In this document: piece by piece, positions 13,170 to 51,207 of the stretch
Numbering within the stretch: the first letter of the stretch is position 1
Layout of the letters: every line of letters starts with the position of its first letter
DNA from: an uncultured Actinomycetes bacterium
Lineage (GTDB): Bacteria > Actinomycetota > UBA4738 > HRBIN12
DNA: 64,000 nucleotides
Reading direction: 5' to 3'
NCBI GenBank assembly: GCA_963705545.1
Contig: CAVPJX010000001.1
Span: forward strand, 1,093,246-1,157,245
Program-made: the position numbers and the translations under genes
The notes under the pieces: generated by a model
What the model saw: the letters and a program-made list of their open reading frames with translations, nothing else
The model's database searches: none
Told to the model about the DNA's origin: nothing

Positions 13170-13209
13170 GACGGCGGCATGCTACCGAACCGCCCCCTAA
13201 GCTTGCCCC

Positions 13210-13803
13210 ATGCCGCCCGACGATCGCGTCACGAAGGTCGCCGATCGGTGCGCGTCCCACCCGGGACGCCCCAAGGCCGCCGATTGCGAACGATGCGGCC
13301 GGGCGCTCTGCATCGTCTGCGCCGTGCCGGTACGCGGGGTCGCGTACGGCCCGGAGTGCCTGGATACGGTGCTCGGCGACGACGCGGTGCTCGTCGAAGC
13401 CCCGAAGCCGACGCGGGCCCCGGCGGATCGCGCGGCCGGCGTGGCGCTCGCCGTCGCCCTGATCGCCACCTTCGCGCCGTGGACGCGCTTCGGGACGGGT
13501 TCGGGCTGGTGGCACGGGGCGTGGAGCCCCGACGTTCGGTGGTCGATGCTCGCCGCCGTCGCCGCGGTCGTCGCCGTGGTCGCGTGGGTCGTCGCCGGGC
13601 CGGGGCGCAGGCGCGCGCGGCTGGGTCGACGGGTATGCATGGTGGCGTGCGTGGCCGTCGCGATCGGCTCGCTCTTCGCGTTCCTCAACCCGCCGCCGTT
13701 CACCAAGCCTGCCTCGGCGCCGTGGATCGCGCTCGCGGCGTCCGTGGCAGCGCTCGTCGCGCTCGCGATCGTCCCGCGACGTCCGGATCCCGGCGAGGCC
13801 TGA
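13210..13803 (+). CDS. hypothetical zinc-ribbon plus 4-TM membrane protein
   Basis: N-terminal Cys cluster (CERCGRALCIVCAV...GPEC) followed by four hydrophobic helices. May be a GC shadow ORF, hence low confidence. Confidence 0.35.
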   Translation: MPPDDRVTKVADRCASHPGRPKAADCERCGRALCIVCAVPVRGVAYGPECLDTVLGDDAVLVEAPKPTRAPADRAAGVALAVALIATFAPWTRFGTGSGWWHGAWSPDVRWSMLAAVAAVVAVVAWVVAGPGRRRARLGRRVCMVACVAVAIGSLFAFLNPPPFTKPASAPWIALAASVAALVALAIVPRRPDPGEA

Positions 13804-31344: not shown

Positions 31345-31968
31345 TCAGGCCTCCTTGGCCACGTGTCCCGTCTCGGTGACGCGGAGGTCGGTGAGACCGG
31401 AGTGCACCCGATCGCCCTCGATCATCACGCTCGCGTCCTCGAGGTAGCCGAGCTCGGCCAGCGTCTCCAAGACGTGCACCAGCGACTCCTCGGGAGCCTC
31501 CGCGAGCGTGTCGATCACCAGCTCCGGATGCTCGGGCGCCTCGTAGGGGTCGTCCACCCCGGTGAAGCCGGTGATCTCGCCGGCGAGCGCCTTCTTGTAC
31601 AGGCCCTTGGGATCACGGTTCGCGGCGATCTCGTCCACGGTCGCGTGCACGTAGACCTCGACGAACGCGCCGATCTGCGCGCGGGCAGCGTCCCGGGTCT
31701 CCTTGTACGGCGAGATCGGACAGCAGATCGTGGCGACGCCGTTGCGGGTCAACAGGTCCGCCACGTACGCGATCCGCAGGATGTTCGTGTCGCGGTCCTC
31801 CTTCGAGAACCCCAGACCCTTGGAGAGGTTCTTGCGCACCTCGTCGCCGTCGAGGATCTCGGTCTGCATCCCTCGCGCCTGGAACTCGTGGTAGAGCATC
31901 TCGGCGATCGTCGACTTGCCGGCGCCGGACAGGCCGGTGAACCAGACGGTGAACCCCTCTCGCGTCAC
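31345..31968 (-). CDS. cysC: adenylylsulfate (APS) kinase
   Basis: GLSGAGKST P-loop and DGDEVRKNL motif. AAGGAG RBS 6 nt upstream of the GTG (complement of 31966-31968). Start overlaps the upstream stop (GTGA). No cysD/cysN or sat in the window. Confidence 0.85.
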   Translation of the reverse strand: MTREGFTVWFTGLSGAGKSTIAEMLYHEFQARGMQTEILDGDEVRKNLSKGLGFSKEDRDTNILRIAYVADLLTRNGVATICCPISPYKETRDAARAQIGAFVEVYVHATVDEIAANRDPKGLYKKALAGEITGFTGVDDPYEAPEHPELVIDTLAEAPEESLVHVLETLAELGYLEDASVMIEGDRVHSGLTDLRVTETGHVAKEA

Positions 31969-33362
31969 AGGAAGCTCCTTCCGGCGGCACCCTCGAGCGG
32001 CGGGGCGCCGTACAGATCCAGGATCGTCGGTCCCACGTCGACCAGGTTCAGCCCGCCGACGCGGCCGCTCCGCTGACCCGGCGCGCCCGACATCACGAGG
32101 ACGCCGTCGCGATCGTGGTTGGCCCCGTCGGGGCCCGTGTCGTTCTCGTACGTGTAGAGGCTGGGGTTGCCCACCGACCCGACCGACCTCCAGGCGAGAT
32201 CCCCGAAGTAGACGATCAGATCCGGCGCCACGCCCTTGACGTCGGGGTAGACGTCCTGGGGCTTGAGGACCTTGGTCCCCAAGGGCTCGCCGTCGGGCCC
32301 GAGCTGCGCCTCGAGCTTCGCGATCAGCTCGTCGCGCACCTCCTCGTAGCGCGCCGGCTCGATCACACCCTGCGGCTCGCGCCCCTTCACGTTGAGGAAG
32401 CATCGCCCGTAGTACCCGCCGTCGCCCCAGACCAACGTGCGGCTCCAATCGATCTGCGCATCCTTGATGGGAACCGGGCCGTTCACCGGCTCGGTGAGCG
32501 TCAGGTACCCCTCCTGGATCAACCAATCGTTGAAGCAGAGCCCGCCCATCATCGGGCGGGCGCCGTGGTCCGACATCAGCATCGTGACCGCGTCGCCGGG
32601 GATCAGCTCCATCAGCGACCCGATCTCACGGTCCAGGAAGCGGTAGTACTCGCGGAAGATCCCCTCGTACTTGTTCCCGGGCTCGTAGAGGGGATGGACC
32701 GGATCGACGTACTGCCAGAAGACGTGATGGAGCCGGTCGGGTGCGATGTCGCAGACCATGAAGAAGTCCCAGGGCTTCTCCTTGATGAGCCGCCGCGCGA
32801 CCTGGAACCGTCGCTCCGTCATCCGGAACACCTGGTCGAGGGTCACGTCGAAGCCGGCCTCGCGGAAGTTCGGGATGTCGAAGATGTAGTTGCCCGGACC
32901 TCCCAGCTCGTCGTCGATCTCGACCTCGAGCTCCTGCGGATACGCCCACCGCTCCGCGGACGGCGGCGTCAGGAAGCAGCCGACGCGCCAACCCGGGAAC
33001 TCCTTGGGCGGCGGGAACGACGGCGGCACGCCGATCAGGCACGATCGCTTGCCCATCGCGCCCAGCACATCCCAGACGGCGGGTGCCTTGATCGAGCCCG
33101 CATGCGCGATCGACAGCCCGTCGTACGAGGCGTCCTTGCGGTTCCGGAACCCGTAGATGCCGAGCTCGCCCGGCGTCTTGCTGGTGAGGGCGCAGGCCCA
33201 GGCGGGCACGGTGATCGGCGGGGTGATGCTCGCGAGGTCGCCGAACATCCCGCCTGCAATCAGCGATCGGATGTTCGGCACCTCGTCGGCCAGGTCGCGG
33301 AACAGGAGCTGGGGCGTGGCACAATCGAGGCCGATCACGGCGACCCGGGGTCCTTGCTGCAT
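31965..33362 (-). CDS. alkaline-phosphatase-superfamily type I phosphodiesterase/nucleotide pyrophosphatase-like protein
   Basis: MQQGPRVAVIGLDCATPQL (NPP-family metal-site start) and HGARPMMGG motif. AAGGA RBS upstream of the ATG (complement of 33360-33362). 466 aa. Confidence 0.8.
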   Translation of the reverse strand: MQQGPRVAVIGLDCATPQLLFRDLADEVPNIRSLIAGGMFGDLASITPPITVPAWACALTSKTPGELGIYGFRNRKDASYDGLSIAHAGSIKAPAVWDVLGAMGKRSCLIGVPPSFPPPKEFPGWRVGCFLTPPSAERWAYPQELEVEIDDELGGPGNYIFDIPNFREAGFDVTLDQVFRMTERRFQVARRLIKEKPWDFFMVCDIAPDRLHHVFWQYVDPVHPLYEPGNKYEGIFREYYRFLDREIGSLMELIPGDAVTMLMSDHGARPMMGGLCFNDWLIQEGYLTLTEPVNGPVPIKDAQIDWSRTLVWGDGGYYGRCFLNVKGREPQGVIEPARYEEVRDELIAKLEAQLGPDGEPLGTKVLKPQDVYPDVKGVAPDLIVYFGDLAWRSVGSVGNPSLYTYENDTGPDGANHDRDGVLVMSGAPGQRSGRVGGLNLVDVGPTILDLYGAPPLEGAAGRSFL

Positions 33363-33490: not shown

Positions 33491-33889
33491 GTGAAGGTGC
33501 TGCGCACGACGCTGTACACGGGCGCGGTCGTCTGGGCAGCCTCGGGGATGGCCCTCGCGATCGCCCCTCACTACCTCATCCACGAGCTCTTCCGGAACGC
33601 GTTCATCCGAGACTGGGCCCTGATCCGGACCCTGGGGGTCGTGGCGATCGGCATGGCGATGCTGATGGTCCTGGTCGCCCAGCGGCTCGAGGACGTCTGG
33701 TGGTGGGCGTGGGCGTTCATCGTCACGACCGCCGGCGTGGCGACGGTGAACGGCCTGCACGCTGCGTTCGGCGATCGCTCCGGTCGGGCGCAACTCATGT
33801 TCTGGCTGATCGCCGGCATCAACGCCGCTCTGTGTGCCGGGCTGCTCCTCGGCATGGGCCGGACCGCGCAGGAGCAACCCTTCGCCTGA
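33491..33889 (+). CDS. hypothetical small membrane protein (4 TM)
   Basis: Four hydrophobic helices, 132 aa, no family recognised. Confidence 0.5.
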   Translation: MKVLRTTLYTGAVVWAASGMALAIAPHYLIHELFRNAFIRDWALIRTLGVVAIGMAMLMVLVAQRLEDVWWWAWAFIVTTAGVATVNGLHAAFGDRSGRAQLMFWLIAGINAALCAGLLLGMGRTAQEQPFA

Positions 33890-38369: not shown

Positions 38370-38415
38370 CAGGATAGCGACGAGAGTGCCAAGGGTCAAC
38401 GCGGCCGGAGGCGGG

Positions 38416-39216
38416 TCAGTCTCTCGGCTCGAAACTGATGCGTCCCCGCTTCTTCGCGAGGAGCCAGCGCGGGTTGGCCGCGTTCAGCCGGAGGCTCAGG
38501 AGGCGGCCCCGGATGGTCTCGCCCAGGTCGCCGCGGCCGTGCTGGTCGCGGACCATGCGACTCTCGCGTTCCATGGCCTCCGCATCGAGGGAGATCTGTG
38601 CCGGGTGGAGACGGAATCGACCTAGGGTAGCCCGCATGATCCTGGGGTGCTGGAGTCGGAGCGCGCGCGCGTACCAATCGTAGTCCCCGCAGTTCCGGTA
38701 CGCGAGATCGAACGTCCCGACGAGGTCGACGAAGGACCGGCGGGCCCACACGGTCTGCTGAGGGATGCACGACCAGCCGAGCCCCAGGTACGAAGGGAGC
38801 GAGAGGTGAACGGGCGTCATCCGACCGAGGACGTCGCCGTGCTCATCGATGTACTCCACCCGACCGCAGAGCCACCCGAGGCCCGGGTCGCGGGCGAACG
38901 CCGACGCGATCCGCGAGAGCGCCTCGGGCGCGATCTCATCGTCGGCGTTGATGTACCCGACGATCGACCCTCGAACGAGCGACATCCCTCGGTTGATCGC
39001 GTCGTACATCCCTTGGTCTTCCGTGGAAGTGACGACCCTGGTCGGATAATCGGAGGCGATCTCTGTCGTCCGGTCCGTGGACCCCCCGTCGACCAATACG
39101 TGGTCGATGCGGATCGTTCCGTCTTGCTGGTCCCAGATCGAGCGAAGCGTCGACGCAAGGAACTCCTCGCCGTTGAGGGTCGGCGTCACTACCCCAACCG
39201 TCACCGGCTCAGACAT
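38416..39216 (-). CDS. family 2 glycosyltransferase
   Basis: VVTPTLNGEEFL, DGGSTD and DDE motifs of GT-A fold GT2 enzymes. ATG is the complement of 39214-39216. Confidence 0.8.
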   Translation of the reverse strand: MSEPVTVGVVTPTLNGEEFLASTLRSIWDQQDGTIRIDHVLVDGGSTDRTTEIASDYPTRVVTSTEDQGMYDAINRGMSLVRGSIVGYINADDEIAPEALSRIASAFARDPGLGWLCGRVEYIDEHGDVLGRMTPVHLSLPSYLGLGWSCIPQQTVWARRSFVDLVGTFDLAYRNCGDYDWYARALRLQHPRIMRATLGRFRLHPAQISLDAEAMERESRMVRDQHGRGDLGETIRGRLLSLRLNAANPRWLLAKKRGRISFEPRD

Positions 39217-39317
39217 CGTGAGTCCTCTCCACGTTGGACTTCCTCCGCCGCAAGGCACTGCGGGAACGAGACGTCATGTATCGTAACGTCCGCGTCCGAA
39301 CCTGACCGGATGAGTCG

Positions 39318-40262
39318 ATGACCCAACCGATCTTCTTGCTCTCACTGCCGCGTTCGGGGTCCACCCTCGTGCAACGGGTCCTCGGGATGCATCCCGACGT
39401 GGCGACGGCGCCCGAGCCCTGGCTCCTGCTTCCCCAGGTGTACGCACTCCGCGAGCGCGGTGCGGCGGCGGAGTACGCCCACGTCTCGGCCGCTCGGGCG
39501 ATCACCGCCTTCGCGGACGGTCTCCCGAACGGGCTCGACGACTACCTCTCCGAGATCCGAGGATTCGCGTTGAACCTCTATGGCCTCGCGGGAGGCGGGA
39601 CCGCCTACTTCCTAGACAAGACCCCGCGCTACTACTTCATCGTGGATGACCTTTACCGGCTCTTCCCTGAGGCTCGTTTCGTATTCCTCTGGAGGAACCC
39701 ACTGAGCGTCGTCGCATCGATCGTGGAGACCTGGGCGAAGGGGCGGTGGGCGCTGGACCGATGGACCGTGGATCTCCACGAGGGCGTCGAGCGTCTCGTG
39801 GAGGCGTCCGCTGAGGCTCGGCCCGGCACCAGCGCGACCCGGTTCGAGGATCTGATCGGGACCCCGGAGGTGAGCTGGCCGCGACTCTTCGGAGAGCTTG
39901 GTCTGGACTTCCAACCCGACATCCTGCAGCGCGTCGGCGACCGGAGGCTGACCGGCAGGATGGGCGATCCAACGGGCCAACATCGATACGAGCTGATCGA
40001 CCGCGAGCCGCTCCAGAAGTGGCGAGCGACGATCTCGACGCCCGTGCGGAAGCGGTGGATGAGGAGCTACCTGCGCTGGATCGGTCGCGCACGACTCGCC
40101 ACCATGGGGTACGAACTCGACGAACTGGAACGGGACCTCGAGACGTCTCGCACCGATCTCCGAAGCGTGGCTTCAGATGCCATCTTCGGAGTGGGCAGTC
40201 GGGCCAACGGATTCGCACGAGATCGCGCCGCACGGTTCGCGTGGCACCGCCCTCCCAGGTGA
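39318..40262 (+). CDS. sulfotransferase family protein (ST-A)
   Basis: 5'-PSB motif LSLPRSGSTLV and 3'-PB motif LWRNPLSVVAS (R.P....S). Confidence 0.75.
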   Translation: MTQPIFLLSLPRSGSTLVQRVLGMHPDVATAPEPWLLLPQVYALRERGAAAEYAHVSAARAITAFADGLPNGLDDYLSEIRGFALNLYGLAGGGTAYFLDKTPRYYFIVDDLYRLFPEARFVFLWRNPLSVVASIVETWAKGRWALDRWTVDLHEGVERLVEASAEARPGTSATRFEDLIGTPEVSWPRLFGELGLDFQPDILQRVGDRRLTGRMGDPTGQHRYELIDREPLQKWRATISTPVRKRWMRSYLRWIGRARLATMGYELDELERDLETSRTDLRSVASDAIFGVGSRANGFARDRAARFAWHRPPR

Positions 40263-40302
40263 CGGCTGCCGGACGAGCTCCTTGAGCAGGATCGACCGGG
40301 CA

Positions 40303-41097
40303 TCAACGATCCGATCTTCGCGTCAGCTCCTCGTACAGCTCGCCCGCTTCGAAGCGAAGGCGTCGTAGTCGATCGACCTCGTATCGGGTGCGAAGCTCGG
40401 CCTTGGCCCCCTCCCGCTCCGCGGTCGGCTTGGCGACCCATCGCACATCTCCCGTGCCTCCGAACATCGCTCTGTCCAGCTCGCCGATCCGCTGGAACAC
40501 GCGATCGACGTTCTCGGGCGTGTGCTCGAACTCGGCGAACCGCGTCCCGAACCTCTGGTTGACGCGACGGATCACACCGCTGAAGTCAGACGTGACGTCT
40601 TCGAACGTGCACACCGAGAGGTGCTCCCGCCAGGGCAGGATCCGACGATGGAAGCGGATCCAGGCGTGCAAGGGGGGCGAAGGAGGGATCCCCCGGAGGA
40701 TCATCTGAGAAAGCACGACGGCTGAGGGCTCCCGCACGATCACCAGAACCGGCCGACGAAGACGGACCGCGCGGATGACCTGCGCGGCGGAATGAGTGTG
40801 ATGAACCACTCGGACGGGCGACGGCTGAGCGAGTTGGAAGGCGGCGACTGCGAACGTGTTACCTGATCGCCCCATGCCCTCGATCACGAGTTCGGTCGAG
40901 GGATCGACCATCCACATCTCGTCGTGTCGATGACGGATCCAGATGAGAGGCGCGTAGACGGATGGATACGCGTTCAGGAGATACCTGACCGAATACGGAA
41001 CGCCGCGGATCCACTCGCGTAGGGGTTCAGACGAAGTCGGGGGCATCTGAACCTCAGGATATGCGGTCGAGATACAAGCGGTCGAGCTTGCGTTCAT
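40303..41097 (-). CDS. sulfotransferase-like protein (ST-B, paralog of 43864..44715)
   Basis: GMGRSGNTFAVAAFQLAQ P-loop-like 5'-PSB and VIVREPSAVVLS 3'-PB-like motifs. Start possibly at the internal Met (41046). Confidence 0.6.
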   Translation of the reverse strand: MNASSTACISTAYPEVQMPPTSSEPLREWIRGVPYSVRYLLNAYPSVYAPLIWIRHRHDEMWMVDPSTELVIEGMGRSGNTFAVAAFQLAQPSPVRVVHHTHSAAQVIRAVRLRRPVLVIVREPSAVVLSQMILRGIPPSPPLHAWIRFHRRILPWREHLSVCTFEDVTSDFSGVIRRVNQRFGTRFAEFEHTPENVDRVFQRIGELDRAMFGGTGDVRWVAKPTAEREGAKAELRTRYEVDRLRRLRFEAGELYEELTRRSDR

Positions 41098-41282
41098 CCG
41101 TTCACGGCCCCAGTCCAGCGTCGCTCACGGCCGATCCGCGACGCCATCGGGCGAGCCTTCGCAGAGAGGCTCGGGGGCGATGCGTGCGATCGGTCTAGGC
41201 CGTATCGACGGATCGTCCCGAGGTTGGTTCAACTATCCTTGGTCGGACGCCCGGAGGACTCGATGACGAGGATTGCGCCGGC

Positions 41283-42723
41283 TTGAACCCAGCGGATGGA
41301 CATCGCGCCAACGAGCCCGCACCCCAGCTTCGCGCGGCGAGCGATGCTGAAGGCGCGTTGGAATCCATCCGGAGACGCCTCATCCGCGGCTCCGGATGGG
41401 TCTTGCTCGCGCGAGGCATCGGGATACCCCTCGGGGTCCTGATCAACGCGCTCCTAGCCCGCATGCTCACGAAGACGGAGTTCGGTGCCTACCTCACGTC
41501 CTTCACGTTGGTGATCATCGGCAGCGTGGTTGCGCAGCTCGGGCTGGATCGAGCCATCGTGCGCCTGGTTTCCGAGTCCCTCGGCGATCTCGCAACCAGG
41601 TCGCGCTCGTCAGACGATCCATCGGTCGTTCATGATCGGGGCGGCATCCTCGGCGACGGTGGCGATCGGGCTGATGCTCGTAGGCCCATACTTCGCGCGG
41701 ACCGTTCTCGATTCCACCCTGGTGGCGGCTGTGATGCCGCTTACGGCTGGCTGGTTGGCGGCATACTCGATCCAATCCCTCGTCGTGGAGTCGTTCCGAG
41801 GACTCCAGGACTTCCGTAGCGCGAACATGTACGACACGATCCTCACGGATGTGGCCCTGGCAACGGCCTTCGGGGTCATGTGGGTCTTCGGGCCGCGCCA
41901 AGCCACGCTCAACACGATCATCCTGATCATCTGTGCGATCACCGCGATCATCGCAACCATCGCAGGCATGCGCTTGCGTAAGCAGATCAGGATCATCCAC
42001 GGATCCGGACAGCTCCTGAGCGGCGAGATCTTCGCCATCGCGTGGCCGTCGCTCATCACGAACATCGCGAGCTACTTGCTGTCGAGCGGAACGGATCTGC
42101 TGATCCTTGGCGCCTTCCGACAACAGTCGCAGGTCGCCGTGTACGGGGCCGCGACCCGCCTGGTCATCCTCGTCGCTACCCCGCTCTGGATCCTCCGCGG
42201 GGTGTTGCCCCCGATGATCTCGGAGCTGTACGCACAGGGACACAAGCGCGAGCTCGAGCGAACGCTCCGTGCCGGGGCAACGATGGCGGGGCTCCCGTCC
42301 TTCGCTATCCTCGTGGTGTTCCTGCTCTTCGGTGGACCGGTGATGGGCCTAGCCTACGGAGCGAACTACGAGTCCGGAGCCACGGTCCTCGCGGTGCTGG
42401 CGGTGGGGAGGATGGTCGCCGTCTGGGCTGGGGCGAGCGGCGTCACGCTGCTGATGACGGGCCATCAGAAGGCGATGATGACCATCACCGTCTGCACGGG
42501 CATCGCGTCCCTGTGCGGAGGCATCCTCGTCGCTCCTCGTTTCGGATCTCTCGGGATCGCCACCGTCACCGCCACCGTCGCCGTGGTGCAGAACCTCCTC
42601 CAGATCGCGGTGGTCCGACGGAGGGTCGGCGTTTGGTCACAGATGCAGTTCTCCCCTCGGATGCTGCACCGGTTCCTCCTCGGCAGGAGGACTCAACGTG
42701 ATGTGGATGCGTCCAACGGGTAG
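41283..42723 (+). pseudogene. Wzx-type polysaccharide flippase (MOP superfamily), disrupted by a frame change near 41600-41610
   Basis: The N-terminal ~105 aa (IRRRLIRGSGWVLLARGIGIPLGVLINALLARML...LGDLATRSR) are in the frame of ORF 41283. The remaining ~375 aa (QTIHRSFMIGAASSATVAIGLMLVGPYF..., 10+ TM) are in the frame of ORF 41530. Confidence 0.7.
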
Positions 42724-43763
42724 CCGAACCGACGCATGAGGGGCCAGGCGGTCGCCGTTACGCCTCGAAGCTGGCCCCGGCTCAGTTTGCGCCTCCACTC
42801 ATCGTCGACCTGGAATCGGATCTCTCCCGTCGCCGACCGCATCCGGTTCCCTGCGATCAGGTGATCCTCTCGAAAGCGGAGCTCTCCGGACGGACCGATA
42901 GCGACATGCGAATCTTGTATGTCGATCCCGGCGAACCTCGCGACCCGACGACATTCGACCCAGGGGTCCTGGACGAAGGATTCGTACCGAAGCACTTCGG
43001 TCGGCACGCCTCGACGAGCGAGGAAGCCGAAGGACGAGTTGATCCAAGTCCACCGCAATCCGGTCTTGGAAGGGCGACGACGTACCCGATAGTCGCTGCC
43101 CTGTCTCTTGACGACCTTGAGGTTGGAATAGGCGACGCCTCGAGGGTCTCGCACGAGATGGACCACGCGGGTATCGATCGTCGGATCCAGGCTCATGGCG
43201 AACACGTGGACGGGGACCTTCATGGAGTCGACGATGACGGCGCCGCCGGCGACATCGGAGATCGCGAGATAGAGACGTGTCATCAGGTGTCGATACGCGT
43301 CGAGCTTTCGCCGAAAACTCGAGGAGAGGGAGGGGTACGTGATCAGCGGGAGTGCGAAGGGCTGCGGGAACGGAAGGTCCTTCAAGACGAGCGAGTTCCG
43401 GAGCGCGGTCGCCGCCTCGGCGTCGAATCCGGCCCACCCTCCGAAGGCGCGATCACCGACGCTCGACCAGAACGGACAATCTCGAACCGAGGATCCACAC
43501 CCGCAGGCACGCCCGTCGATCAGCGCCTTGTCCCAGAGATGGCCGATCTCCCCGATCGCGCAGAAACCGGGTATCCCTCCGATGATCCGAGAGAAGACGG
43601 TCGCCCCGTTCTGCCCGGTCCCCGCCACCAACAAGACACGAACGCTCCCGACCCCCACCGATCCCCTTCGTTCCGTACATGACCCGGAGTCTGAGCAACC
43701 ACGGGTTGTATCGAAGTCTACTGTTATCCTCCGACGGTGAGAGGAGACGGACGCTTGGATCAA
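42693..43763 (-). CDS. sulfotransferase family protein with Cys-rich insertion (ST-C)
   Basis: LLVAGTGQNGATVFS 5'-PSB-like and HLVRDPRGVAYSN 3'-PB motifs. Insertion GRACGCGSSVRDCPFW. The N-terminal ~35 aa of the ORF are probably not translated. Confidence 0.65.
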   Translation of the reverse strand: MIQASVSSHRRRITVDFDTTRGCSDSGSCTERRGSVGVGSVRVLLVAGTGQNGATVFSRIIGGIPGFCAIGEIGHLWDKALIDGRACGCGSSVRDCPFWSSVGDRAFGGWAGFDAEAATALRNSLVLKDLPFPQPFALPLITYPSLSSSFRRKLDAYRHLMTRLYLAISDVAGGAVIVDSMKVPVHVFAMSLDPTIDTRVVHLVRDPRGVAYSNLKVVKRQGSDYRVRRRPSKTGLRWTWINSSFGFLARRGVPTEVLRYESFVQDPWVECRRVARFAGIDIQDSHVAIGPSGELRFREDHLIAGNRMRSATGEIRFQVDDEWRRKLSRGQLRGVTATAWPLMRRFGYPLDASTSR

Positions 43764-43863
43764 CCGCCGTTGCTCCCACGAACACGTTCTCTCGAGCGAC
43801 CGTCGGCGAAGTGGGAGAGAGGGCGGACTCCATCTCGAACGGTGGCAGGATGAAGCCCCGGAG

Positions 43864-44715
43864 TTGACGCTGACTCCTCGATCCGTCGGTCGGACCGTCG
43901 AGGACCACAGCCTGGGAGCGAGGCTTCAGGCTGCGCGCTGGGTGTTACGGAACCGCATCGCCGAGCACCCGCGCCTCTATCTACCGGTCGCTGGTCGCAG
44001 GTATCCGGACGCGGTTCTCACCGACGAGACCGACCTGGTGATCGACGGTTTCACCCGCTCGGCTGTGACCTTCACATCGATCGCTTTCCAGCTGGCGCAG
44101 AGCACGCGGGTGCGTGTCGCGTTCACCCTCCATTCGGTTGGTCACATCCTCGCCGCGGCTGAGCGTGGCGTTCCAGCGCTCGTCACGATCCGGGACCCGG
44201 ACCAAGTCGCCCTCTCCGCGGTCATCCGGGAGCCCTTCCTCTCCATCGGCGACGTCATGGCAGCCTATTCGCGCTTCTACGGCAGACTCTGGCCCGTTCG
44301 ACGATCCCTCGCGGTCGTCAGTTTCGACCAGGTCGTTACCGATCTCGGATCCGTGATCAGACAGCTCAACGCCCAGTTCAGCACCTCCTTCGACGAGTTC
44401 GAACACACGGAACAGAACGTGCGTCTGTGTTACGGCATCATCGACGATCGATCCAAGCGGGAACCGTGGCTGCGTGCGATCGGTTGGTTCCAAGGGGGCA
44501 AGATCACGTACGAGGCGTATCTCCAGGCGGTGGAATCCAGGAGATCAGCCGCGGGGCCGGACCGACAGGTCCCGGAACGGAGCGTCCCTCGACCCTCGCG
44601 CCAACGGGAGGCCTTCAAGGACAGGATCCGAGAAGCGCTCGGGGATCCTCGGATCATGGGCGTTCGCACCAGGGCGCTGCTGACGTATCGGTCATTCCTT
44701 CAAGACGAGCGGTAA
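43864..44715 (+). CDS. sulfotransferase-like protein (ST-D, paralog of 40303..41097)
   Basis: LVIDGFTRSAVTFTSIAFQLAQ and LVTIRDPDQVALSAV (RDP....S) motifs. Blocks alignable with the ST-B product. Confidence 0.6.
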   Translation: MTLTPRSVGRTVEDHSLGARLQAARWVLRNRIAEHPRLYLPVAGRRYPDAVLTDETDLVIDGFTRSAVTFTSIAFQLAQSTRVRVAFTLHSVGHILAAAERGVPALVTIRDPDQVALSAVIREPFLSIGDVMAAYSRFYGRLWPVRRSLAVVSFDQVVTDLGSVIRQLNAQFSTSFDEFEHTEQNVRLCYGIIDDRSKREPWLRAIGWFQGGKITYEAYLQAVESRRSAAGPDRQVPERSVPRPSRQREAFKDRIREALGDPRIMGVRTRALLTYRSFLQDER

Positions 44716-44787
44716 TCCTGGGTGCGATCGTCGCGATCCGCCGGAGCTAAGGAGTCCCGCGTCGTCGCGCGCGATCCCCGATCAGCT

Positions 44788-45759
44788 TCAGAACGGCCAG
44801 ATCTCGAGCCCGTGGATCGCGTTCCTCAGGTCCATCGAGAGGTTGACGGTCGCGATCACTTCGGGGGGGTCGAAGCGGTACAGCGAGACCGTCGCCGGTG
44901 AGGATCCGGCCACGAAGGTATCGCCATCGCCAACCACCGCCAGCCCGCGGCCGAACGCCTGCCGAGCCATGTCCCGCGTGACGTCGGAGTGCCGCAGATC
45001 CTCCCTCGCGTATCGCTTGATCGGCCAGGATCGCAGAAGCCGACCTCGACGATCAACGTACGCGACCCGGTCGGTGGCGGTGTGATTCATGAGGGCGCCC
45101 GCTCTGAACGGCCGTGCGTTGTGCGTCCCGTAGGGGACGTGTGCGTAGCGGGTCAACCGGTCCTCGCCGATCCTCCATAACGTCCCGGCGTTCACTCCGC
45201 AGCAGAACAACCCCGAAGCTTCTGCCACCACGCTGTTGATATGGATCGTGTCTCCGGCCGCAGGGCCGTCATCCGCCTCGGGATCGAACGAGACGAACGA
45301 AGGTCGGGGCCTCACCCCGAGCCGGCGCCGACCCTTCCAGGCGGAGCCGTATCGCAGCACGTAGCCACGTGTGAACCGCTCTGCCAAGAGATCGTATTCC
45401 AGCACGCTGTCGAAGCCGGTTGAGGTCACGAACAGGCGATCGCCCGCGACGCAGATCTCGTGACAATGACGAAGGTATCGATTGCCGAATGAACCGAGCG
45501 GCTCCAATTGGCGATCGAACACGAAGATCTCGTCGCTAGCCGCAAGGAAGACTCGCTCCCGATGGAACGCGATCCCGCGGAGACCGCGGTCCCCACCACG
45601 GCCCTCCCAGTCGATCGACGCTGCGTTCCAGTCGATGCGTTGATCCACCGACCCGGTCGCCATATCCACGAGGTAGACACCGCCGTGACTCTGACCTTGA
45701 TCGGCGGACCGAACGACCGAGCTCACGATCACCTTGGGTGGCCTCTTACTCGACGCCAT
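44788..45759 (-). CDS. conserved hypothetical protein (possible beta-propeller-like fold)
   Basis: 339-aa ORF without stops in the glycan locus. Start taken at the internal Met (MASSKRPPK); the alternative start is 45807. Confidence 0.45.
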   Translation of the reverse strand: MASSKRPPKVIVSSVVRSADQGQSHGGVYLVDMATGSVDQRIDWNAASIDWEGRGGDRGLRGIAFHRERVFLAASDEIFVFDRQLEPLGSFGNRYLRHCHEICVAGDRLFVTSTGFDSVLEYDLLAERFTRGYVLRYGSAWKGRRRLGVRPRPSFVSFDPEADDGPAAGDTIHINSVVAEASGLFCCGVNAGTLWRIGEDRLTRYAHVPYGTHNARPFRAGALMNHTATDRVAYVDRRGRLLRSWPIKRYAREDLRHSDVTRDMARQAFGRGLAVVGDGDTFVAGSSPATVSLYRFDPPEVIATVNLSMDLRNAIHGLEIWPF

Positions 45760-45828
45760 CGGTTGCTCAGAAGGTGCCGTATTCAACGGTCCCCTCGGCC
45801 CCGTCATGCAACGACCCGGCAGCGCGCA

Positions 45829-47127
45829 TCACCATCGGACGCTCCCGCCAGCGAGCGCTGGAGGGGTTGTCGAGACGCCTCGGCCAGGCTCCTGAGTCTC
45901 CCGATCGTCCGCATCCTCCCCTTCCTCGCCGGACGTCCTGCCATCTCGCACGACCAGCATGGCCAAGCCGTACGTCATGCCGATCACGGCGGAACGCGAC
46001 ATCCCCTCCAAGACCGGATTGAAGGCAGCCGCCACGAAGAAACAGTTGAAGCCCACCAACAGGAGGCGCACGAGCCCGGCACGTGTGTCTCTCGCCTGGG
46101 CCACGAAGTTCCTGTGTGCCCGTGTCAGGGTGATGTTCAACGTCAGGATGAAGGCGAGCAAGAGACCGAGCCCGACCAGTCCGCCCTCTCTCAGGAAGAG
46201 GACGTAATCGTTGTGGAACGGAAGCTGGATGACCGTTCCATTCCGCGATCTGATCGTCTGCGCCACCGTCCCGCCGGTGAACGCATTGCCGAAGAAGGGG
46301 GACGTCTTCCAATCCTCGATCCCGGAACTCCATATCGCCACCCGAACACTGCTCGCGTTCGACTTGCCGACCGCGACGAAGTAGTCCCCGGTGACCTCTT
46401 CAACGCGCGACACATGAGCGAGCGCGAAGAGGGTCGCCAGCAAGGCGATCGACGCGAAGACGTAGGGCCGTGCTCGCGAAGCCCGGGGTTTCGTGACGCT
46501 GAACGTAACGATGGTCGCGATCACACAGAGGATCGATGTAGCCGATGGATAGGCGGCGAAGTTCGCTGCCTCCAGCCCGCAGAGAGCCACAAGCAACCAC
46601 CGTCGTCTCGCCACGATCGCCCCGGCGATCCCGAACATGACGAAGGTGAACTGCGCATTCCGGAATTGCTTGTACTTGGCAAGATCCGGAAGGACGCCGG
46701 AGTTGACGAGCGCCGCAACGAGGAGGTACAAGGCCCCGACCAGGGTGATCGCCAGGAGGATCCTCTTGCACTCGTCATCCGTCGGCGACCGAAGGACGAG
46801 CAGGTAGAGGATCGCGAGCGACAACGGCAGGAACACGACCCTCGCAGAGGTACCCGATCCCTGGATCATCGACGCGTACAGGGACCCGGCGAGCCCCATG
46901 AGCAAGATCGCGAGGAAGATCTTGTCGGTAACGGTCGTCGTGCGCACGTATGGGGTTCTAAGGCGGGTCCAGTCGTAGAGAACGACGATCACGGGCACCG
47001 CGAGGATCAGGTACTTCTTCGAGCCGCCACGGTCGAAGAAGTTGAATATGTCCATGGCCGTAACGAACATGATGAAGACGGTGACCCTCGCGTACCGGTA
47101 GCCTTCTGTCGATGGGCCTCGACCCAT
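45829..47127 (-). CDS. O-antigen ligase/polymerase (Wzy_C) family membrane protein
   Basis: About 10 TM helices with a large periplasmic loop carrying AIWSSGIEDW...NAFTGG...HNDYVLFL, typical of the O-antigen ligase family. Start chosen downstream of the convergently overlapping ORF head. Confidence 0.7.
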   Translation of the reverse strand: MGRGPSTEGYRYARVTVFIMFVTAMDIFNFFDRGGSKKYLILAVPVIVVLYDWTRLRTPYVRTTTVTDKIFLAILLMGLAGSLYASMIQGSGTSARVVFLPLSLAILYLLVLRSPTDDECKRILLAITLVGALYLLVAALVNSGVLPDLAKYKQFRNAQFTFVMFGIAGAIVARRRWLLVALCGLEAANFAAYPSATSILCVIATIVTFSVTKPRASRARPYVFASIALLATLFALAHVSRVEEVTGDYFVAVGKSNASSVRVAIWSSGIEDWKTSPFFGNAFTGGTVAQTIRSRNGTVIQLPFHNDYVLFLREGGLVGLGLLLAFILTLNITLTRAHRNFVAQARDTRAGLVRLLLVGFNCFFVAAAFNPVLEGMSRSAVIGMTYGLAMLVVRDGRTSGEEGEDADDRETQEPGRGVSTTPPALAGGSVRW

Positions 47128-47224
47128 GGCCCTCGCGCTCACAGGATCACCCGCCCGGACAAGGCTGTTCGCGCAGCCCGAGCGCGACGTCCCGTGGGCA
47201 GCTCGAACGCATACCGTGACGCCG

Positions 47225-48397
47225 TCACCGTGACCCCGCCAAGTCGAGTCGATCACCCATCGCCATCCGATACTCGGATTCCAGGGCGGCCAGCCCTCGC
47301 TCAGGAGTGAATCGATCACGCCACGCCCTCAAGGCTTCGTTCCCCATCCGTTCGCTCTCGGCGTCGTCGAGCAATCGTCCCACGACTTCCGCCCACGCCG
47401 CCGGGTCGTCGACGGTCGCGAGGTAGCCGGTCTTCCCGGATTCCACGGCCTCTGGCAGTGCGCCGACATCACTCGCGATCACCGGAACCCCGGCGGCATA
47501 CGCCTCGGTGATCACCCGGGGGGCTGCTTCGTACCACCGCGAGGGGATGAGAACCGCGCGCGCCGAGGCCAGGAGATCTGGCACTTCCTCGGCAGCCACC
47601 GCTCCGAGGAACGACACGCCGGGCGGGGCCTCAGACCGAAGCTTCGGCGCTTCCGGTCCATCTCCTGCGATCAAGAGCCTCGCCTTCGGGCTCGACCTCC
47701 AAGCCGATATCAGCGTGTCGACACCCTTCTCGTGAGCGATCCTTCCGAGGAAGAGGAAGTAGTCACCGGCTCCTCGCCTGATCCGCGCCGGGGGTGTGAA
47801 GTTCGGTTTGACTCCGATCGCCCCTGGCGCGATGCCCGCATCGATGTGTCGATCTCGAACGAAGTTGCTCACCGCTAGGTACCTGGAGACGGAGTCGAAC
47901 GTTCCGATCCCTCGATGGAGGGTGACGGACGCAGCCACCGCGGCGCTCCCTGCGACCGACCCTCGGTAACAGCGGTGAACGACACCCCTCCATGGCACGT
48001 GGCCGAGACAGTCCTCGCATGGGCGATCTCCGCGGAGGAGATTGGCTGGGAGGCACATCAGCCGGTAGTTGTGGAGTGTGATGACCGTCGCGGCGCCCCC
48101 GCGTCTCCCAGCCCGCAAGACCGCCGGCGACAATGCCGGGAAGAGGTTGTGTGCGTGAACGATGTCCACGCTCTCTTTGGCCACGAAATCCCGTACGACG
48201 CGGTAGGCGTGTGAAGACCAGATCGTCGAGATCCCGGCCCGCACCTGCTCCGAGAACGTCGATGCGACGGGCTCCGGCGTGAATCGCCACACATCGTGGC
48301 CGGCCCGTCGCAGCAACGCTGCTTCATCCTCCAGCACGCGGTTCTCACCCGAGGTCGGCCCGGAGAGGTATCGCGAGTGGACGAGGAGGATGCGCAT
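47225..48397 (-). CDS. family 4 (GT-B) glycosyltransferase
   Basis: MRILLVHSRY N-terminus and the C-terminal EAAPRVITEAYAAGVPVIASDVGALPE (EX7E-like) motif. Confidence 0.8.
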   Translation of the reverse strand: MRILLVHSRYLSGPTSGENRVLEDEAALLRRAGHDVWRFTPEPVASTFSEQVRAGISTIWSSHAYRVVRDFVAKESVDIVHAHNLFPALSPAVLRAGRRGGAATVITLHNYRLMCLPANLLRGDRPCEDCLGHVPWRGVVHRCYRGSVAGSAAVAASVTLHRGIGTFDSVSRYLAVSNFVRDRHIDAGIAPGAIGVKPNFTPPARIRRGAGDYFLFLGRIAHEKGVDTLISAWRSSPKARLLIAGDGPEAPKLRSEAPPGVSFLGAVAAEEVPDLLASARAVLIPSRWYEAAPRVITEAYAAGVPVIASDVGALPEAVESGKTGYLATVDDPAAWAEVVGRLLDDAESERMGNEALRAWRDRFTPERGLAALESEYRMAMGDRLDLAGSR

Positions 48398-48759
48398 CGT
48401 AGTATCCGCTGTCATCGAGGCAGCGATCGCGCGCGGGATCGTTTCCAGACACGTGGCGGATGGTAGTCGGTTGCCCTCGGCCCAGGCATCGGTCCCAAGA
48501 CTCCGGCGTTCGGCCACGTCTCACCATCCGCCCTAGAACCATCCCCATGGATCGCGAACCGATTTGCCTTTCGGCGCGCCACCGGATCGTGTTCCGTCGG
48601 ACGCATCTCTCTCGCGCATGCGCAGAGCGTGCGGGCCGACACGTCCGTTGACGCGGACCCCGCAACCCGTGCCCTCGGTCGACGGATCCGGGAGCAGGTC
48701 CGCGCGGATCTGCAACGGCGCCCCTGATATCCTTCCCTGATGACTACCTCGTTGCCTTC

Positions 48760-49647
48760 GTGACGGGAGCGACGTCCAGCCGGCGACGAGAGGACCCTGT
48801 CGTGATCTTCCTGCATGTCGGGAAGACGGCTGGCACGACCATCAGGCAGATCCTTCGGAGACAGTATCCGCCACGAGACACCCTGGTCATCCTGAATCCT
48901 CCGCTCCGAGACGCGGGAAGATCGGAACGGCTGACACGGGAGCGGACGCTAGACTACTTCGCTTCCCTGCCCGAGGCGGAGCGCAACCGGCCCTCGTTGA
49001 TCATCGGACACATCGTCTTCGGCTTACACCGGTTCATCAGTCGTCCCGCCACCTACTTCACCCTCCTCCGCGACCCGGTAGCGCTGACGGTCTCGCAATA
49101 CAACTTCGTGCGTCGGACGCCTAACCATCCGCTTCATGATGATGCCCGCACCCGATCCCTAGAGGACTACGTCAAGAGTGGGATCAGCCTTGAGACCGAC
49201 AACAGCCAAACGCGAGCGCTCTCCGGAGACCGAACGACACCGTTCGGTGGGTGCACCGAGCGATTGCTCTCGGAAGCGAGATCGAACGCTGAGGCGTCGT
49301 TCGCCGTCGTCGGCCTCGTCGAGCGGTTCGACGAGTCCCTACTGCTGCTCAAGGATGCCTTCGGTTGGAGAGACCCCTTCTACCTGCGAACCAACGTGAG
49401 CCGCGCTCGGAAGGATCCACTCCCCTCCGGCGTTCGAGCGCGGATCGAGGAGCAGAATCGGTTCGATATGGAGCTGTACTCGTGGGCGACAGCCCGCTTC
49501 CAACGGACCGTCGAGGAGACGCCCGATCTCGAGGACGCTCTCCAGAGGTTCCATCGGGCGAACCGATCCCATGCCCCGATCGGCTGGCTGACCGAGGCGC
49601 TCCCGAGACAGATCGTCCGTAGCGCTAGGAGGGTCGCCAAGAAGTAG
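48760..49647 (+). CDS. sulfotransferase family 2-like protein (ST-E)
   Basis: IFLHVGKTAGTTI (HxPKTGGT-type 5'-PSB) and LLRDPVALTVSQY (RDP....S 3'-PB). GTG start. Confidence 0.7.
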   Translation: MTGATSSRRREDPVVIFLHVGKTAGTTIRQILRRQYPPRDTLVILNPPLRDAGRSERLTRERTLDYFASLPEAERNRPSLIIGHIVFGLHRFISRPATYFTLLRDPVALTVSQYNFVRRTPNHPLHDDARTRSLEDYVKSGISLETDNSQTRALSGDRTTPFGGCTERLLSEARSNAEASFAVVGLVERFDESLLLLKDAFGWRDPFYLRTNVSRARKDPLPSGVRARIEEQNRFDMELYSWATARFQRTVEETPDLEDALQRFHRANRSHAPIGWLTEALPRQIVRSARRVAKK

Positions 49648-49692
49648 GCGCAGCCCGAGGCCAACCGAGGTGCGGTCGAGCGGACAACCCCC

Positions 49693-51207
49693 TCACGGAA
49701 TCGACTTCACGCTCTCGCAGTCCACCGCGACGTCGTTGCCGAGTCCCCCGATGCAAACATCGAAGCCTGGGCCGCCGATCAGGAGGTCGTTGCCGTCTCC
49801 GCTCGTCAGCCTGTCGTCGCCGTCCCCGCCCTCCAAGCGGTCGTCGTCGGGCCCACCGAGGAGCACGTCGGCGCCACCGCGTCCGTAGAGTCCGTCCGCG
49901 CCGACGGCACCCTTCAGCGTGTCGTCTCCCTCCCCTCCGTCGATCACGTCATTTCCCGCAGACCCGACGATCAGGTCGAGCCCTACCTCTCCCATCAGCG
50001 TGTCGTCGCCACCTCCACCGGTCACCGAATCGTCGTCCGAACCCGCGCAGATAACGTCGTGTCCACCGCGACCTTCTACGTCGTCATTGCCCGCGAGGGT
50101 GGAGATGACATCCGCCTGTGCGGTTCCAAGGATGGCGTCGCCTCCCGCCGTTCCGATGATCGTGGCAGGCAAGCCCGCACAGGTCTCCGGCAGCACGGCG
50201 TCCACCTGGTGGTTCGAGACGACCACCTCGATCGGATCGTGGAACGTGTCGACCACGCCGGGGACAGGAGAGACGGGCGTCTGGGTCCCGGTAAAGGGGT
50301 CGACGCGAACGATGCCGCCCCCGACATCTCCGTACGTACCGTCACCCGCGAAACCGTCTTGGCTTGCCACGAGGATCTGACCTTGTCCGTCCACCGACAC
50401 ACCGGAGGTGGCGTGGAGGAAGCCATCTGAGGTGAGCTTCGATTGGCCCCCGGTGGTCCGATCGACGCGGATCACGCCGCCACTCGAATTGGTGTAGGCG
50501 TTCTCGTCTCCGACGATGACGTTCCCCGAGGGCTCGACCGCGATGCCGAGCGGGGTGAGGAAGTCGCCCTGCGGGGAAACCACGGCCTGAGCTCCGGTCA
50601 CGGGGTCGATCCCGATCACCCGACCCCCACCCCCGCCCGCCGTGTGTTCATCGGCGACCAGGATGTATCCGCTCGGGTCGAGCGTGACGCCCCTCGGGTT
50701 CCGCAGGAAGCCATCGTGGGCGAGGACGGTCTGCAACCCGGTCACGGGATCGACGCGGAAGACCGCTCCGTTCCCCTGGGGAGGGATCGCCGCCGGATCC
50801 ACGACGATGAGGCTCCCATCGGCCTCGATAGCGACGTCGGAGGGGGCCTTGAACATTCCTCCCTCGGATATGATGGTCTGCAACCCCGTCGCGAGATCGA
50901 GGCGGATCAGCGCACCCGGGCCTCCTCGCGCATCTTGATCAGCGATGATGAGTCGCCCGCCGGCATCCATCGCAGCTCCGAAGGGGTCCTTGAGGTACCC
51001 ATCCGCGGCGATCAGGGTCTGCGTCCCCGAAACCGGGTCGACCTTGAGGACCTTCCCGTTACCCGAGATGTCACGGTCGACGACGATGAGATCCCCGATG
51101 TTGACGACAGGCTCCGCCGACGCTACGGTCGGCGCGAGGAGCGTTGCGGAGAAGATGATCCCGCAGACCGCGATCCGCAGGATGTTGAGCCGAGTAGGGA
51201 AGGTCAT
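49693..51207 (-). CDS. secreted NHL-repeat beta-propeller protein with C-terminal RTX-type Ca-binding beta-roll repeats
   Basis: Signal peptide. Six repeats of VDPVTG.QT...DG.L..P.G.. and about eight nonapeptides GGxGxDxL/V ([31 protein letters not shown] and others). Confidence 0.7.

Follow-up and report, generated by a model that had tools for sequence, protein, structure and literature searches.

Results

An NPP-like gene and cysC form a translationally coupled pair

The window, by which we mean the whole 64-kb stretch of DNA analyzed here, carries on its minus strand an NPP-like gene of the AlkP superfamily whose stop codon overlaps the start codon of cysC (Table 1). Read from the sequence, the NPP-like frame runs from an ATG at position 33362 to a TGA at 31965-31967. 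A longer, TTG-started frame reaching to 33470 was rejected as the gene, since the homologues are 465 aa in length and align from residue 1. The GTGA-coupled cysC and NPP/AlkP genes reported in the earlier note are present with the coordinates and content claimed, and both the AAGGAG ribosome binding site and the P-loop GLSGAGKST of cysC were confirmed on reading the sequence and its translation.

Table 1. Coordinates of the coupled pair, its junction and the sulfotransferase genes in the window
Feature	Position	Strand	Description
cysC, adenylyl-sulfate (APS) kinase	31345..31968	-	207 aa, GTG start; PF01583, TIGR00455, NF002059
Translational-coupling junction	31965..31980	-	AAGGAG 31980-31975, 6-nt spacer, GTG 31968-31966 over TGA 31967-31965
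NPP-like AlkP-superfamily gene	31965..33362	-	465 aa + stop; proposed TON_1705-type cytoplasmic inorganic pyrophosphatase
Sulfotransferase (PF13469)	39318..40262	+	Pfam 107 bits; lower-GC polysaccharide island
Weak sulfotransferase-domain protein	42693..43763	-	PF00685 24.7 bits (cut-off 22); PF13469 26.8 bits (cut-off 27)
Gal-3-O-sulfotransferase-like protein	48760..49647	+	PF06990 56 bits; same island

The cysC product scored 202.8 bits against PF01583 (Pfam cut-off 21.1), 205.8 bits against TIGR00455 apsK (NCBIfam cut-off 138.7) and 244.2 bits against NF002059 (NCBIfam cut-off 244). In addition to the P-loop (Walker A), its translation displays ILDGDEVR (LDGD), CPISPY (ISPY) and RDPKGLY, which are presumably APS-binding motifs. 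CysC is 67-92% identical across related actinobacterial loci. While CysC homologues that act on other substrates are known (e.g., Cj1415), the protein encoded here is predicted by profile and motifs to be a canonical APS kinase.

We compared the pair with the best 80 related loci from species genomes of uncultured Actinomycetota. In all of these loci, wherever the contig was long enough, cysC lay directly 3' of the NPP-like gene. The junction was a 4-nt overlap (NTGA) in 62 of 76 cases, a 1-nt overlap in 4 and a direct abutment in 6, such that the genes overlapped or abutted at 72/76 junctions, and all of them carry a conserved GGAAGGAGCTTCCT box. The pair is located within a strongly syntenic groESL-guaB3-guaA-uvrD housekeeping block. 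Insertions are occasionally found right behind cysC in the related actinobacterial loci; among them are a GT2 gene together with a sulfotransferase gene, and a sulfatase-family gene. Promoter and terminator scans around the pair recognized none, and the operon boundaries are putative. We conclude that the NPP-like gene and cysC constitute a real translationally coupled unit, not a local accident.

Other sulfate assimilation genes are absent from the window

Domain scans of the genes called in the 64-kb window identified none of the following: Sat, CysD/N, CysH, sulfite reductase, CysQ, and DHH or PHP phosphatase domains. Likewise, tblastn over the window using Sat and PHP queries revealed neither; the absence of DHH is based on the Pfam scans, as the DHH tblastn query was run against metagenome loci only. 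Gaps left unscanned in the window are too short to hold Sat-, CysDN-, CysH- or phosphatase-type genes, and tblastn using pyruvate-kinase and second-NPP-paralogue queries retrieved just a disrupted pyruvate-kinase-like gene. The claim that sat, cysDN, cysH and sulfite reductase genes are missing nearby was thus upheld within the 64-kb window, by domain scans and, for Sat, by tblastn as well. In the ~1.2 Mb of flanks belonging to the 80 actinobacterial loci, a search for Sat and PHP found neither of the two. Since no Sat adjoins the pair in either the window or the 80 loci, the source of PPi is unlinked here. The NPP-like enzyme of this lineage is more tightly tied to CysC than to Sat.

The NPP-like protein is predicted to adopt an NPP-type fold

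The NPP-like protein matched the entire PF01663 (Phosphodiest) profile over residues 7-412 (131.4 bits, Pfam cut-off 23). This was its sole Pfam match, placing the protein outside the known pAp phosphatase families (IMPase/CysQ, DHH/NrnA and PHP), and the NCBIfam scan matched 0 models. A sequence search against PDB chains returned nothing below E 0.01, a profile search gave marginal partial matches only (sulfatases, NPPs and phosphonoacetate hydrolase), and a literature search on COG3379 found nothing relevant. We used the AF2 model (pLDDT 94.7) for a Foldseek search of the PDB, in which the best 50 matches were all ENPP, Xac NPP or autotaxin (probability 1.00, TM 0.52-0.60), headed by ENPP1/3/5/6 and Xac NPP. 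The modeled protein is consistent with an NPP-type fold.

In an alignment of 60 sequences (45-92% identity), D13, T51, D209, H213, D265, H266 and H416 are invariant, as are N74 and the extra arginines around it (R73-N74-R75). Positions 205-270, which cover the D/H pairs, match Xac NPP by profile. The Thr nucleophile and the six ligands of the bimetal site appear to be conserved, and would map residue for residue onto those of the NPPs. We also considered whether the phosphoryl-binding Asn was missing (TVPAW versus TFPNH), and rejected this possibility because the Asn corresponds to the invariant N74, ~22 residues past the nucleophile.

Canonical NPPs (Xac NPP and ENPP1/3/5/6), which are the best structural matches (TM 0.53-0.60), share the Thr nucleophile, the six metal ligands and the Asn with the window protein. 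However, the window protein is just 12-16% identical to them, possesses ~80-100 extra residues, and carries an arginine on either side of the Asn (R73 and R75). It also bears a Val (V52) in place of the base-stacking Phe beside the nucleophile of NPPs such as Xac NPP. In contrast to the secreted or ecto location of canonical NPPs, the window protein lacks an N-terminal hydrophobic segment or signal peptide, with its first (catalytic) strand beginning at residue 7 in the translation and the AF2 model, and is predicted to be cytoplasmic.

A homologous gene precedes APS kinase in an archaeal sulfate activation cluster

By BLASTP, the NPP-like protein is 45% identical to P0403 of Ferroglobus placidus over its full length (451 aligned residues, E 2e-152). 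The F. placidus genes are ordered Sat, DHH, P0403, APS kinase (4-nt overlap) and TauE. PMC8268124 reports the cluster from P. yayanosii, F. placidus and T. onnurineus, among others, and proposes that its 'type I phosphodiesterase/nucleotide pyrophosphatase' degrades PPi. For T. onnurineus, PMC4463584 lists TON_1704 as APS kinase, TON_1705 as pyrophosphatase, TON_1706 as PAP phosphatase and TON_1707 as Sat. TON_1705 has thus been characterized as an inorganic pyrophosphatase, and the neighboring DHH protein is the pAp phosphatase, characterized in T. onnurineus and P. yayanosii (PMC4463584, PMC9653972 and PMC8268124). Table 1 of PMC9653972 credits the TON_1705 PPase with a kcat of 2.1 s-1 and a Km of 18.8 uM at pH 9.5, citing Lee et al. 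2009. For a pyrophosphatase this kcat is low, and the enzyme may therefore prefer a substrate other than PPi.

Based on the gene order of TON_1704-1707 and the annotation of PYCH_17550, rather than on the TON_1705 sequence itself, we propose that the NPP-like protein is the counterpart of TON_1705. As in the archaeal Sat-DHH-NPP-APSK clusters (TON_1704-1707, PYCH_17530-17560 and Ferp_2428-2433), where an NPP-family gene lies directly upstream of the APS kinase gene, the NPP-like gene adjoins APS kinase in the window, throughout its lineage and in F. placidus. The F. placidus member further resembles the window protein with respect to its 4-nt overlap with APS kinase, its cytoplasmic nature and its length class. 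In contrast to the archaeal clusters, the window contains the NPP-like and cysC genes only, Sat and pAp phosphatase being unlinked, and the clustering with ATP sulfurylase and pAp phosphatase typical of TON_1705 is not seen. Moreover, the host is bacterial and the pair resides in a groESL-guaB3-guaA block, whereas the archaeal cluster is self-contained. Given that the same module is present in archaea, the pair in the window is real but largely ordinary.

The NPP-like family is widespread and repeatedly linked to Sat and CysC

At E <= 1e-30, some 2,400 representatives belong to the NPP-like family, and 469 species genomes contain relatives. Fusions include Sat::NPP-like (P0128, P0271 and P0278), CysC::NPP-like (P0131), NPP-like::PK::Sat, which contains a pyruvate-kinase barrel (P0242), and a PPi-releasing MobA-like nucleotidyltransferase::NPP-like protein (P0243); fusion of a family member to GT2 is also present. 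Sat and/or CysC adjoins the NPP-like gene in 38 of 80 diverse metagenome loci. Gene order varies: KSB1 displays Wzz - sat - NPP-like - cysC - sulfotransferase, Rokubacteria carry cysC - NPP-like within an EPS cluster, and at locus L088 the NPP-like gene is followed by cysC. Roughly half of the family members are without sulfur genes nearby, so that sulfate activation is not the dedicated role of every member.

In bacterial clusters, a separate PHP-type phosphatase lies beside Sat and the NPP-like gene, and the best NCBIfam match of this PHP protein is 3',5'-nucleoside bisphosphate phosphatase. With DHH or PHP co-occurring, the NPP-like gene is not the sole pAp phosphatase candidate in sulfate activation clusters. 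CysQ (inositol monophosphatase fold), NrnA/DHH and PHP Cv1693-type enzymes belong to the same pathway and clusters, but their folds are unrelated to that of the NPP-like protein. Since pAp phosphatases and the NPP-like protein co-occur in one cluster, they are best regarded as partners, not equivalents.

The pair is conserved without the nearby sulfotransferase island

Three sulfotransferase genes in the window (Table 1), which are candidate consumers of PAPS, are situated in an island with a GC content of 64-67%, compared to 70-73% elsewhere in the window. The earlier note had placed sulfotransferases downstream of the pair. Three such genes are indeed present, but relative to the direction of the operon they are upstream, on the far side of groESL. 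The further suggestion that the pair dedicates PAPS to these sulfotransferases was too strong: the pair is part of the conserved core of the lineage, whereas in related loci the island does not accompany it, and we rejected a dedicated link on these grounds. The proposed non-assimilatory context holds in part, in that a link to sulfation, as opposed to assimilation, is plausible; the same NPP-like/CysC module is found together with sulfotransferases in sulfated-polysaccharide clusters across phyla. Sulfation is therefore a plausible use of the PAPS made by this module.

Discussion

We favor, at a probability of roughly 60%, a model in which the bicistronic pyrophosphatase and APS kinase pull sulfate activation toward PAPS. 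ATP sulfurylase, which in this genome would have to be encoded outside the 64-kb window, forms APS and PPi in a reaction with a very unfavorable equilibrium. The NPP-like protein would act as a cytoplasmic two-metal, Thr-nucleophile inorganic pyrophosphatase of the AlkP superfamily and remove the PPi, while CysC would phosphorylate APS to PAPS. Overlap of the stop and start codons, together with the internal Shine-Dalgarno box, may hold the two products in fixed proportion. The resulting PAPS would presumably feed sulfotransferases (the three of the nearby polysaccharide island among them) and/or PAPS reduction. Homology and position relative to TON_1705 point to PPi as the probable substrate of the NPP-like protein.

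Fusions of ATP sulfurylase to inorganic pyrophosphatase in stramenopiles and haptophytes have been explained as a means to shift the equilibrium (PMC2275785). The logic would be the same as that proposed here, PPi removal being physically tied to sulfate activation; the candidate described here differs in having an AlkP-superfamily NPP-like fold and in its partner, with coupling to CysC taking the place of fusion to Sat. The pyrophosphatase domain of the stramenopile and haptophyte proteins, which we take to be of the classical soluble type, is termed just 'inorganic pyrophosphatase' in that paper.

Other substrates for the NPP-like protein were weighed. According to the earlier note, it may be a non-canonical PAP/PAPS/APS hydrolase that stands in for CysQ. 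In such a role it would clear pAp, a by-product of sulfotransferases, or trim sulfonucleotide pools. NPP-type enzymes can cleave nucleotide phosphoanhydrides, the abundance of invariant arginines would fit binding of a polyanionic nucleotide, the window is without a CysQ, DHH or PHP phosphatase, and the lineage couples the NPP-like gene tightly to CysC, not Sat. We nevertheless regard this role as quite improbable, and the claim as unsupported: the protein shares 45% identity with the NPP-like member of the Ferroglobus cluster, separate DHH or PHP pAp phosphatases sit beside the NPP-like gene in the archaeal and bacterial clusters, the T. onnurineus sources assign PPase activity to TON_1705 and PAP phosphatase activity to TON_1706, and fusion to a non-sulfur nucleotidyltransferase fits PPi rather than pAp. 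Alternatively, the NPP-like protein may remove ADP produced by CysC or NDP produced by glycosyltransferases, or may cleave nucleotide pyrophosphates broadly, hydrolyzing PPi only as a side activity. We consider this unlikely. Its closest folds are nucleotide-cleaving NPPs, the reported kcat on PPi is low, family members are fused to a pyruvate-kinase barrel and to GT2, and the Actinomycetota linkage is tighter to CysC than to Sat; however, the product common to Sat and the nucleotidyltransferase fusion partners is PPi, not NDP, and V52 replaces the base-stacking Phe that follows the nucleophile in NPPs.

A non-orthologous sulfate adenylyltransferase, with an adenylyl group carried from ATP to Thr51 and then onto sulfate to yield APS, would explain a cysC without sat. 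NPPs form covalent Thr-NMP intermediates, and neither the window nor the ~1.2 Mb of related flanks contains Sat/CysDN. Yet the family is repeatedly fused or adjacent to bona fide Sat, so that a redundant Sat function is hardly to be expected; we rejected the protein as a Sat replacement on this basis and view such chemistry as highly improbable. More broadly, we give little credence to an NPP-like enzyme that has been uncoupled from Sat, locked to CysC within an operon of the housekeeping core and turned to a substrate other than PPi, whether as a sulfonucleotide/ADP hydrolase or as a Thr-adenylyl APS maker; were it so, the hydrolase would tune APS/PAPS flux, or the enzyme would make APS in genomes without Sat/CysDN. 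Finally, the adjacency could be devoid of functional meaning, reflecting a lineage-specific frozen order of two unrelated housekeeping genes. Although the pair does lie inside a strongly syntenic housekeeping block, its independent recurrence in archaea, KSB1, Rokubacteria and metagenomic lineages, in varied orders and as fusions, renders this scarcely credible.

Taken together, the analysis corrects a plausible but probably wrong CysQ-like functional guess, and provides a usable name for a very large family whose sole database label is 'alkaline phosphatase family protein'. The module consisting of Sat, an AlkP-type pyrophosphatase, APS kinase and a pAp phosphatase was earlier known from a few hyperthermophilic archaea; our searches find it to be widespread in bacteria, often in sulfated-polysaccharide clusters and sometimes fused. 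In this uncultured soil and hot-spring actinobacterial lineage, the ability to make PAPS seems to belong to the core traits, with sulfated glycans as a likely product.

The NPP-like gene and cysC are a conserved, coupled pair

The pair and the features around it, located by a GC3-based gene call and Pfam scans covering almost all called genes, are summarized in the table. Along its full length the NPP-like protein matched Pfam PF01663 (type I phosphodiesterase/nucleotide pyrophosphatase) with 131 bits, and none of the NCBIfam models searched with it matched. The downstream protein carries the P-loop GLSGAGKST and matched PF01583 with 203 bits and TIGR00455 with 206 bits (cut-off 139); it is by its sequence a canonical APS kinase. 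The earlier note's observation of an overlapping cysC was therefore accurate. CysC extends ~30 residues past the 177-position NF002059 profile, an extension that seems to be conserved because tblastn matches in relative loci span nearly its full length.

Features of the pair and its surroundings (window positions)
Feature	Position	Strand	Remarks
NPP-like gene	ATG 33362 to TGA 31967-31965	minus	465 codons, read from sequence
cysC	GTG 31968-31966 to end at 31345	minus	207 codons, read from sequence
Junction		minus	cysC start and NPP-like stop share four bases, GTGA; read from sequence
AAGGAG	31980-31975	minus	6 nt ahead of the cysC GTG
CysC C-terminal extension	31345-31437	minus	residues 178-207
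Small membrane protein gene	33491-33889	plus	132 aa; between Glu/Leu-dehydrogenase-like and NPP-like genes
Polysaccharide island	38.4 to about 58.3 kb (38400-58330)		GC 64-67%, against 70-73% elsewhere in the window
Pyruvate-kinase-barrel-like gene	55298-56330	plus	inside island, adjoins Wzz/BY-kinase gene; in-frame TGA 55439-55441, frameshift near 56108

On the minus strand the pair is preceded by groES, groEL, an SRPBCC protein gene and a Glu/Leu-dehydrogenase-like gene, and followed by an IMPDH-like gene (guaB3-type), guaA, a hypothetical gene and uvrD/pcrA. Within the 64-kb window we found no Sat, CysD/N, CysH, sulfite reductase, CysQ, PHP phosphatase or, by Pfam scans only, DHH phosphatase, bearing out the earlier statement that no assimilatory genes lie nearby. 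The small membrane protein, encoded divergently from the NPP-like gene, has several hydrophobic segments and no match in a Pfam scan; its position is kept in most relative loci (29-90% identity). Three ORFs called from their first start, 3089-4918 (-), 934-2379 (+) and 11023-13515 (-), have long N-terminal stretches before their Pfam domains (the first domain residue is 303 for malate/lactate dehydrogenase, 129 for Iso_dh and 337 for the PurH domains); these extensions of housekeeping ORFs are probably over-extended starts in high-GC sequence, not real fusions.

When one genome per species was scanned, relatives turned up in 469 genomes; the 80 best, nearly all labelled uncultured Actinomycetota MAGs, were taken with their flanks. 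The NPP-like protein is unusually conserved, with more than 120 clusters at 75% identity or above, nearly all of 465 aa. cysC directly followed the NPP-like gene in every one of the 80 loci that extended far enough, within the same block groESL ... guaB3-guaA-uvrD. The genes overlapped by 4 nt (NTGA) at 62 of 76 junctions and by 1 nt at 4, abutted at 6 and were separated by a short spacer at 2, the other 2 being assembly frameshifts; the box GGAAGGAGCTTCCT was kept across related junctions. Sat was never found in the flanks of the 80 loci, and the island, sulfotransferases included, showed no conservation or synteny beside the pair. The coupling is genuine and maintained by selection, and the pair belongs to the core of the lineage, not to the polysaccharide island.

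Relation to an archaeal module, and the active site

A conserved archaeal cluster combines ATP sulfurylase, a DHH pAp phosphatase that the same paper characterised, the 'type I phosphodiesterase/nucleotide pyrophosphatase' PYCH_17550, for which PPi degradation was proposed, and APS kinase; its hosts include T. onnurineus and F. placidus (ferp_2428-2433) (PMC8268124). PMC4463584, with reference to Lee et al. 2009, assigns the APS kinase to TON_1704, the pyrophosphatase to TON_1705, the PAP phosphatase to TON_1706 and the ATP sulfurylase to TON_1707, and PMC9653972 lists TON_1705 pyrophosphatase kinetics (pH 9.5, kcat 2.1 s-1, Km 18.8 uM). Our profile search led to P0403 of F. placidus, which bears the same name as PYCH_17550, lies in the order Sat - DHH - P0403 - APS kinase (4-nt overlap) - TauE, and aligns over 451 residues with the window protein (45% identity, E 2e-152). 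The tie to TON_1705 is by gene order and annotation, not by alignment. The window pair is a bacterial member of the archaeal module but, in contrast to it, has neither Sat nor a pAp phosphatase linked to it and lies within a housekeeping block.

An AlphaFold2 model of the NPP-like protein, built on 60 homologues, was confident (pLDDT 94.7, pTM 0.93). Its best PDB matches were ENPP1/3/5/6, autotaxin and Xanthomonas NPP (TM 0.52-0.60, 12-16% identity), and sequence, profile and fold searches against the PDB found no close relative with a solved structure. Residues D13, T51, D209, H213, D265, H266 and H416, invariant across 45-92% identity, would by position be the NPP metal ligands and Thr nucleophile. 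N74, flanked by invariant R73 and R75, is itself invariant and lies 23 residues past T51, the same spacing as the phosphoryl-binding Asn of NPPs; together with the further invariant arginines R210, R320, R328 and R392, it would fit a small polyanion, for example PPi. No signal peptide was found.

Fusions and neighbourhoods across the family

Searching 1.84 billion representatives gave 2,362 relatives with E <= 1e-30. The NPP-like domain is fused to Sat in P0128, P0271 and P0278, to APS kinase in P0131, to a MobA-like nucleotidyltransferase in P0243 and to GT2 in P0152, and P0242 is a triple fusion, NPP-like::pyruvate-kinase barrel::Sat. A Sat::NPP-like fusion gene has cysC directly after it, sulfotransferases around it and a PHP phosphatase nearby; a PHP phosphatase also comes after the triple fusion gene. 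A KSB1 genome carries Wzz - sat - NPP-like - cysC - sulfotransferase, followed by a second NPP paralogue - epimerase - sulfotransferase - flippase; in a Rokubacteria genome, cysC - NPP-like lies within a polysaccharide cluster, and contig L088 has the NPP-like gene, then cysC. In 80 diverse metagenome loci, Sat lay beside the NPP-like gene in 31 and CysC in 31, with at least one of them in 38 and both in 24.

A PHP protein directly followed the NPP-like gene in 5 of these 80 loci. The best NCBIfam match of the PHP proteins was 3',5'-nucleoside bisphosphate phosphatase (225 bits, under the equivalog cut-off), and in the Sat/NPP-like/CysC module of bacteria they probably take the place that the DHH pAp phosphatase has in archaea. 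PHP-domain proteins of ~280 aa after Sat and NPP-like genes were seen at L098, L108, L114, L116, L123, L085 (18754-19632) and L086 (10911-11756).

Sulfur genes are missing from the surroundings of about half of the family members, which often stand in tandem with paralogues. A second, distant NPP-like paralogue (26-31% identity, ~450-530 aa), sometimes adjoining a sulfotransferase, is frequent in the same sulfated-polysaccharide/sulfate-activation clusters (L082 11306-12652, L085 7079-8671, L093, L100, L106, L107, L123, L125, L126 and others; further L003, L042, L048, L052 and L055), and three or four tandem paralogues occur at L154, L162 and L170.

Proposed function and alternatives

We propose, with a probability of roughly 0.6, that the NPP-like protein is a pyrophosphatase that acts with CysC to pull the Sat reaction to PAPS. 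ATP sulfurylase yields APS and PPi at a very unfavourable equilibrium; removal of PPi by the NPP-like enzyme and of APS by CysC would draw the reaction forward, and overlapping translation would hold the two pulling enzymes at a set ratio. This reasoning also accounts for the fusions of ATPS with pyrophosphatase in stramenopiles and haptophytes (PMC2275785), and for the fusion of this family to Sat as well as to a nucleotidyltransferase that is unrelated but likewise releases PPi. The weak points of the proposal are the unlinked Sat in this lineage, the low reported kcat, the indirect tie to TON_1705 and the half of the family that lacks sulfur context. An ADP, NDP or general nucleotide hydrolase with PPi as a side activity is an unlikely alternative description of the enzyme.

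The earlier note had cast the NPP-like protein in the CysQ role, as a pAp/PAPS/APS hydrolase. Separate DHH or PHP pAp phosphatases occupy the same clusters, and the reported activities are split between TON_1705 and TON_1706; both points contradict that role, which we regard as quite improbable. That the protein is a non-orthologous sulfate adenylyltransferase is very improbable because the family is so frequently fused to or adjoining Sat, and a meaningless adjacency is scarcely credible given that the pairing recurs independently across phyla.

Use of PAPS

The lower-GC island encodes GT2, GT4, Wzy, a MATE-like flippase, Wzz/BY-kinase, epimerases, an RTX/NHL-repeat protein and three sulfotransferase-type genes, a probable sulfated exopolysaccharide pathway. 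Its pyruvate-kinase-barrel-like gene is either a pseudogene or affected by assembly errors, given the in-frame TGA and the frameshift; P0242 too has such a barrel, between its NPP-like and Sat domains.

Sulfation is a plausible use of the PAPS because family members sit in sulfated-polysaccharide clusters, because the three sulfotransferase-type genes lie 6-18 kb from the pair, and because two relatives carry same-strand insertions directly after cysC, a GT2 + Sulfotransfer_3 protein gene in L023 (12066-13969, +) and a sulfatase-family gene in L014 (12086-13309, +). PAPS may also serve assimilation through a PAPS reductase encoded elsewhere. Directly downstream of cysC, and convergent with it, a TreT-like trehalose-synthase GT4 gene is present in 13 of the 80 actinobacterial loci (L080 2819-4237, -; L003, L007, L012, L016, L028, L033, L034, L036, L038, L040, L045 and L061), which raises a sulfated trehalose product as a possible candidate. 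The suggestion that the pair supplies PAPS to sulfotransferases holds as regards a PAPS-supply module, plausibly for sulfation, but not as regards dedication to the neighbouring island, which is not conserved beside it. The pair represents a bacterial form of a module for which hyperthermophilic archaea had already provided a description and a partial characterisation.
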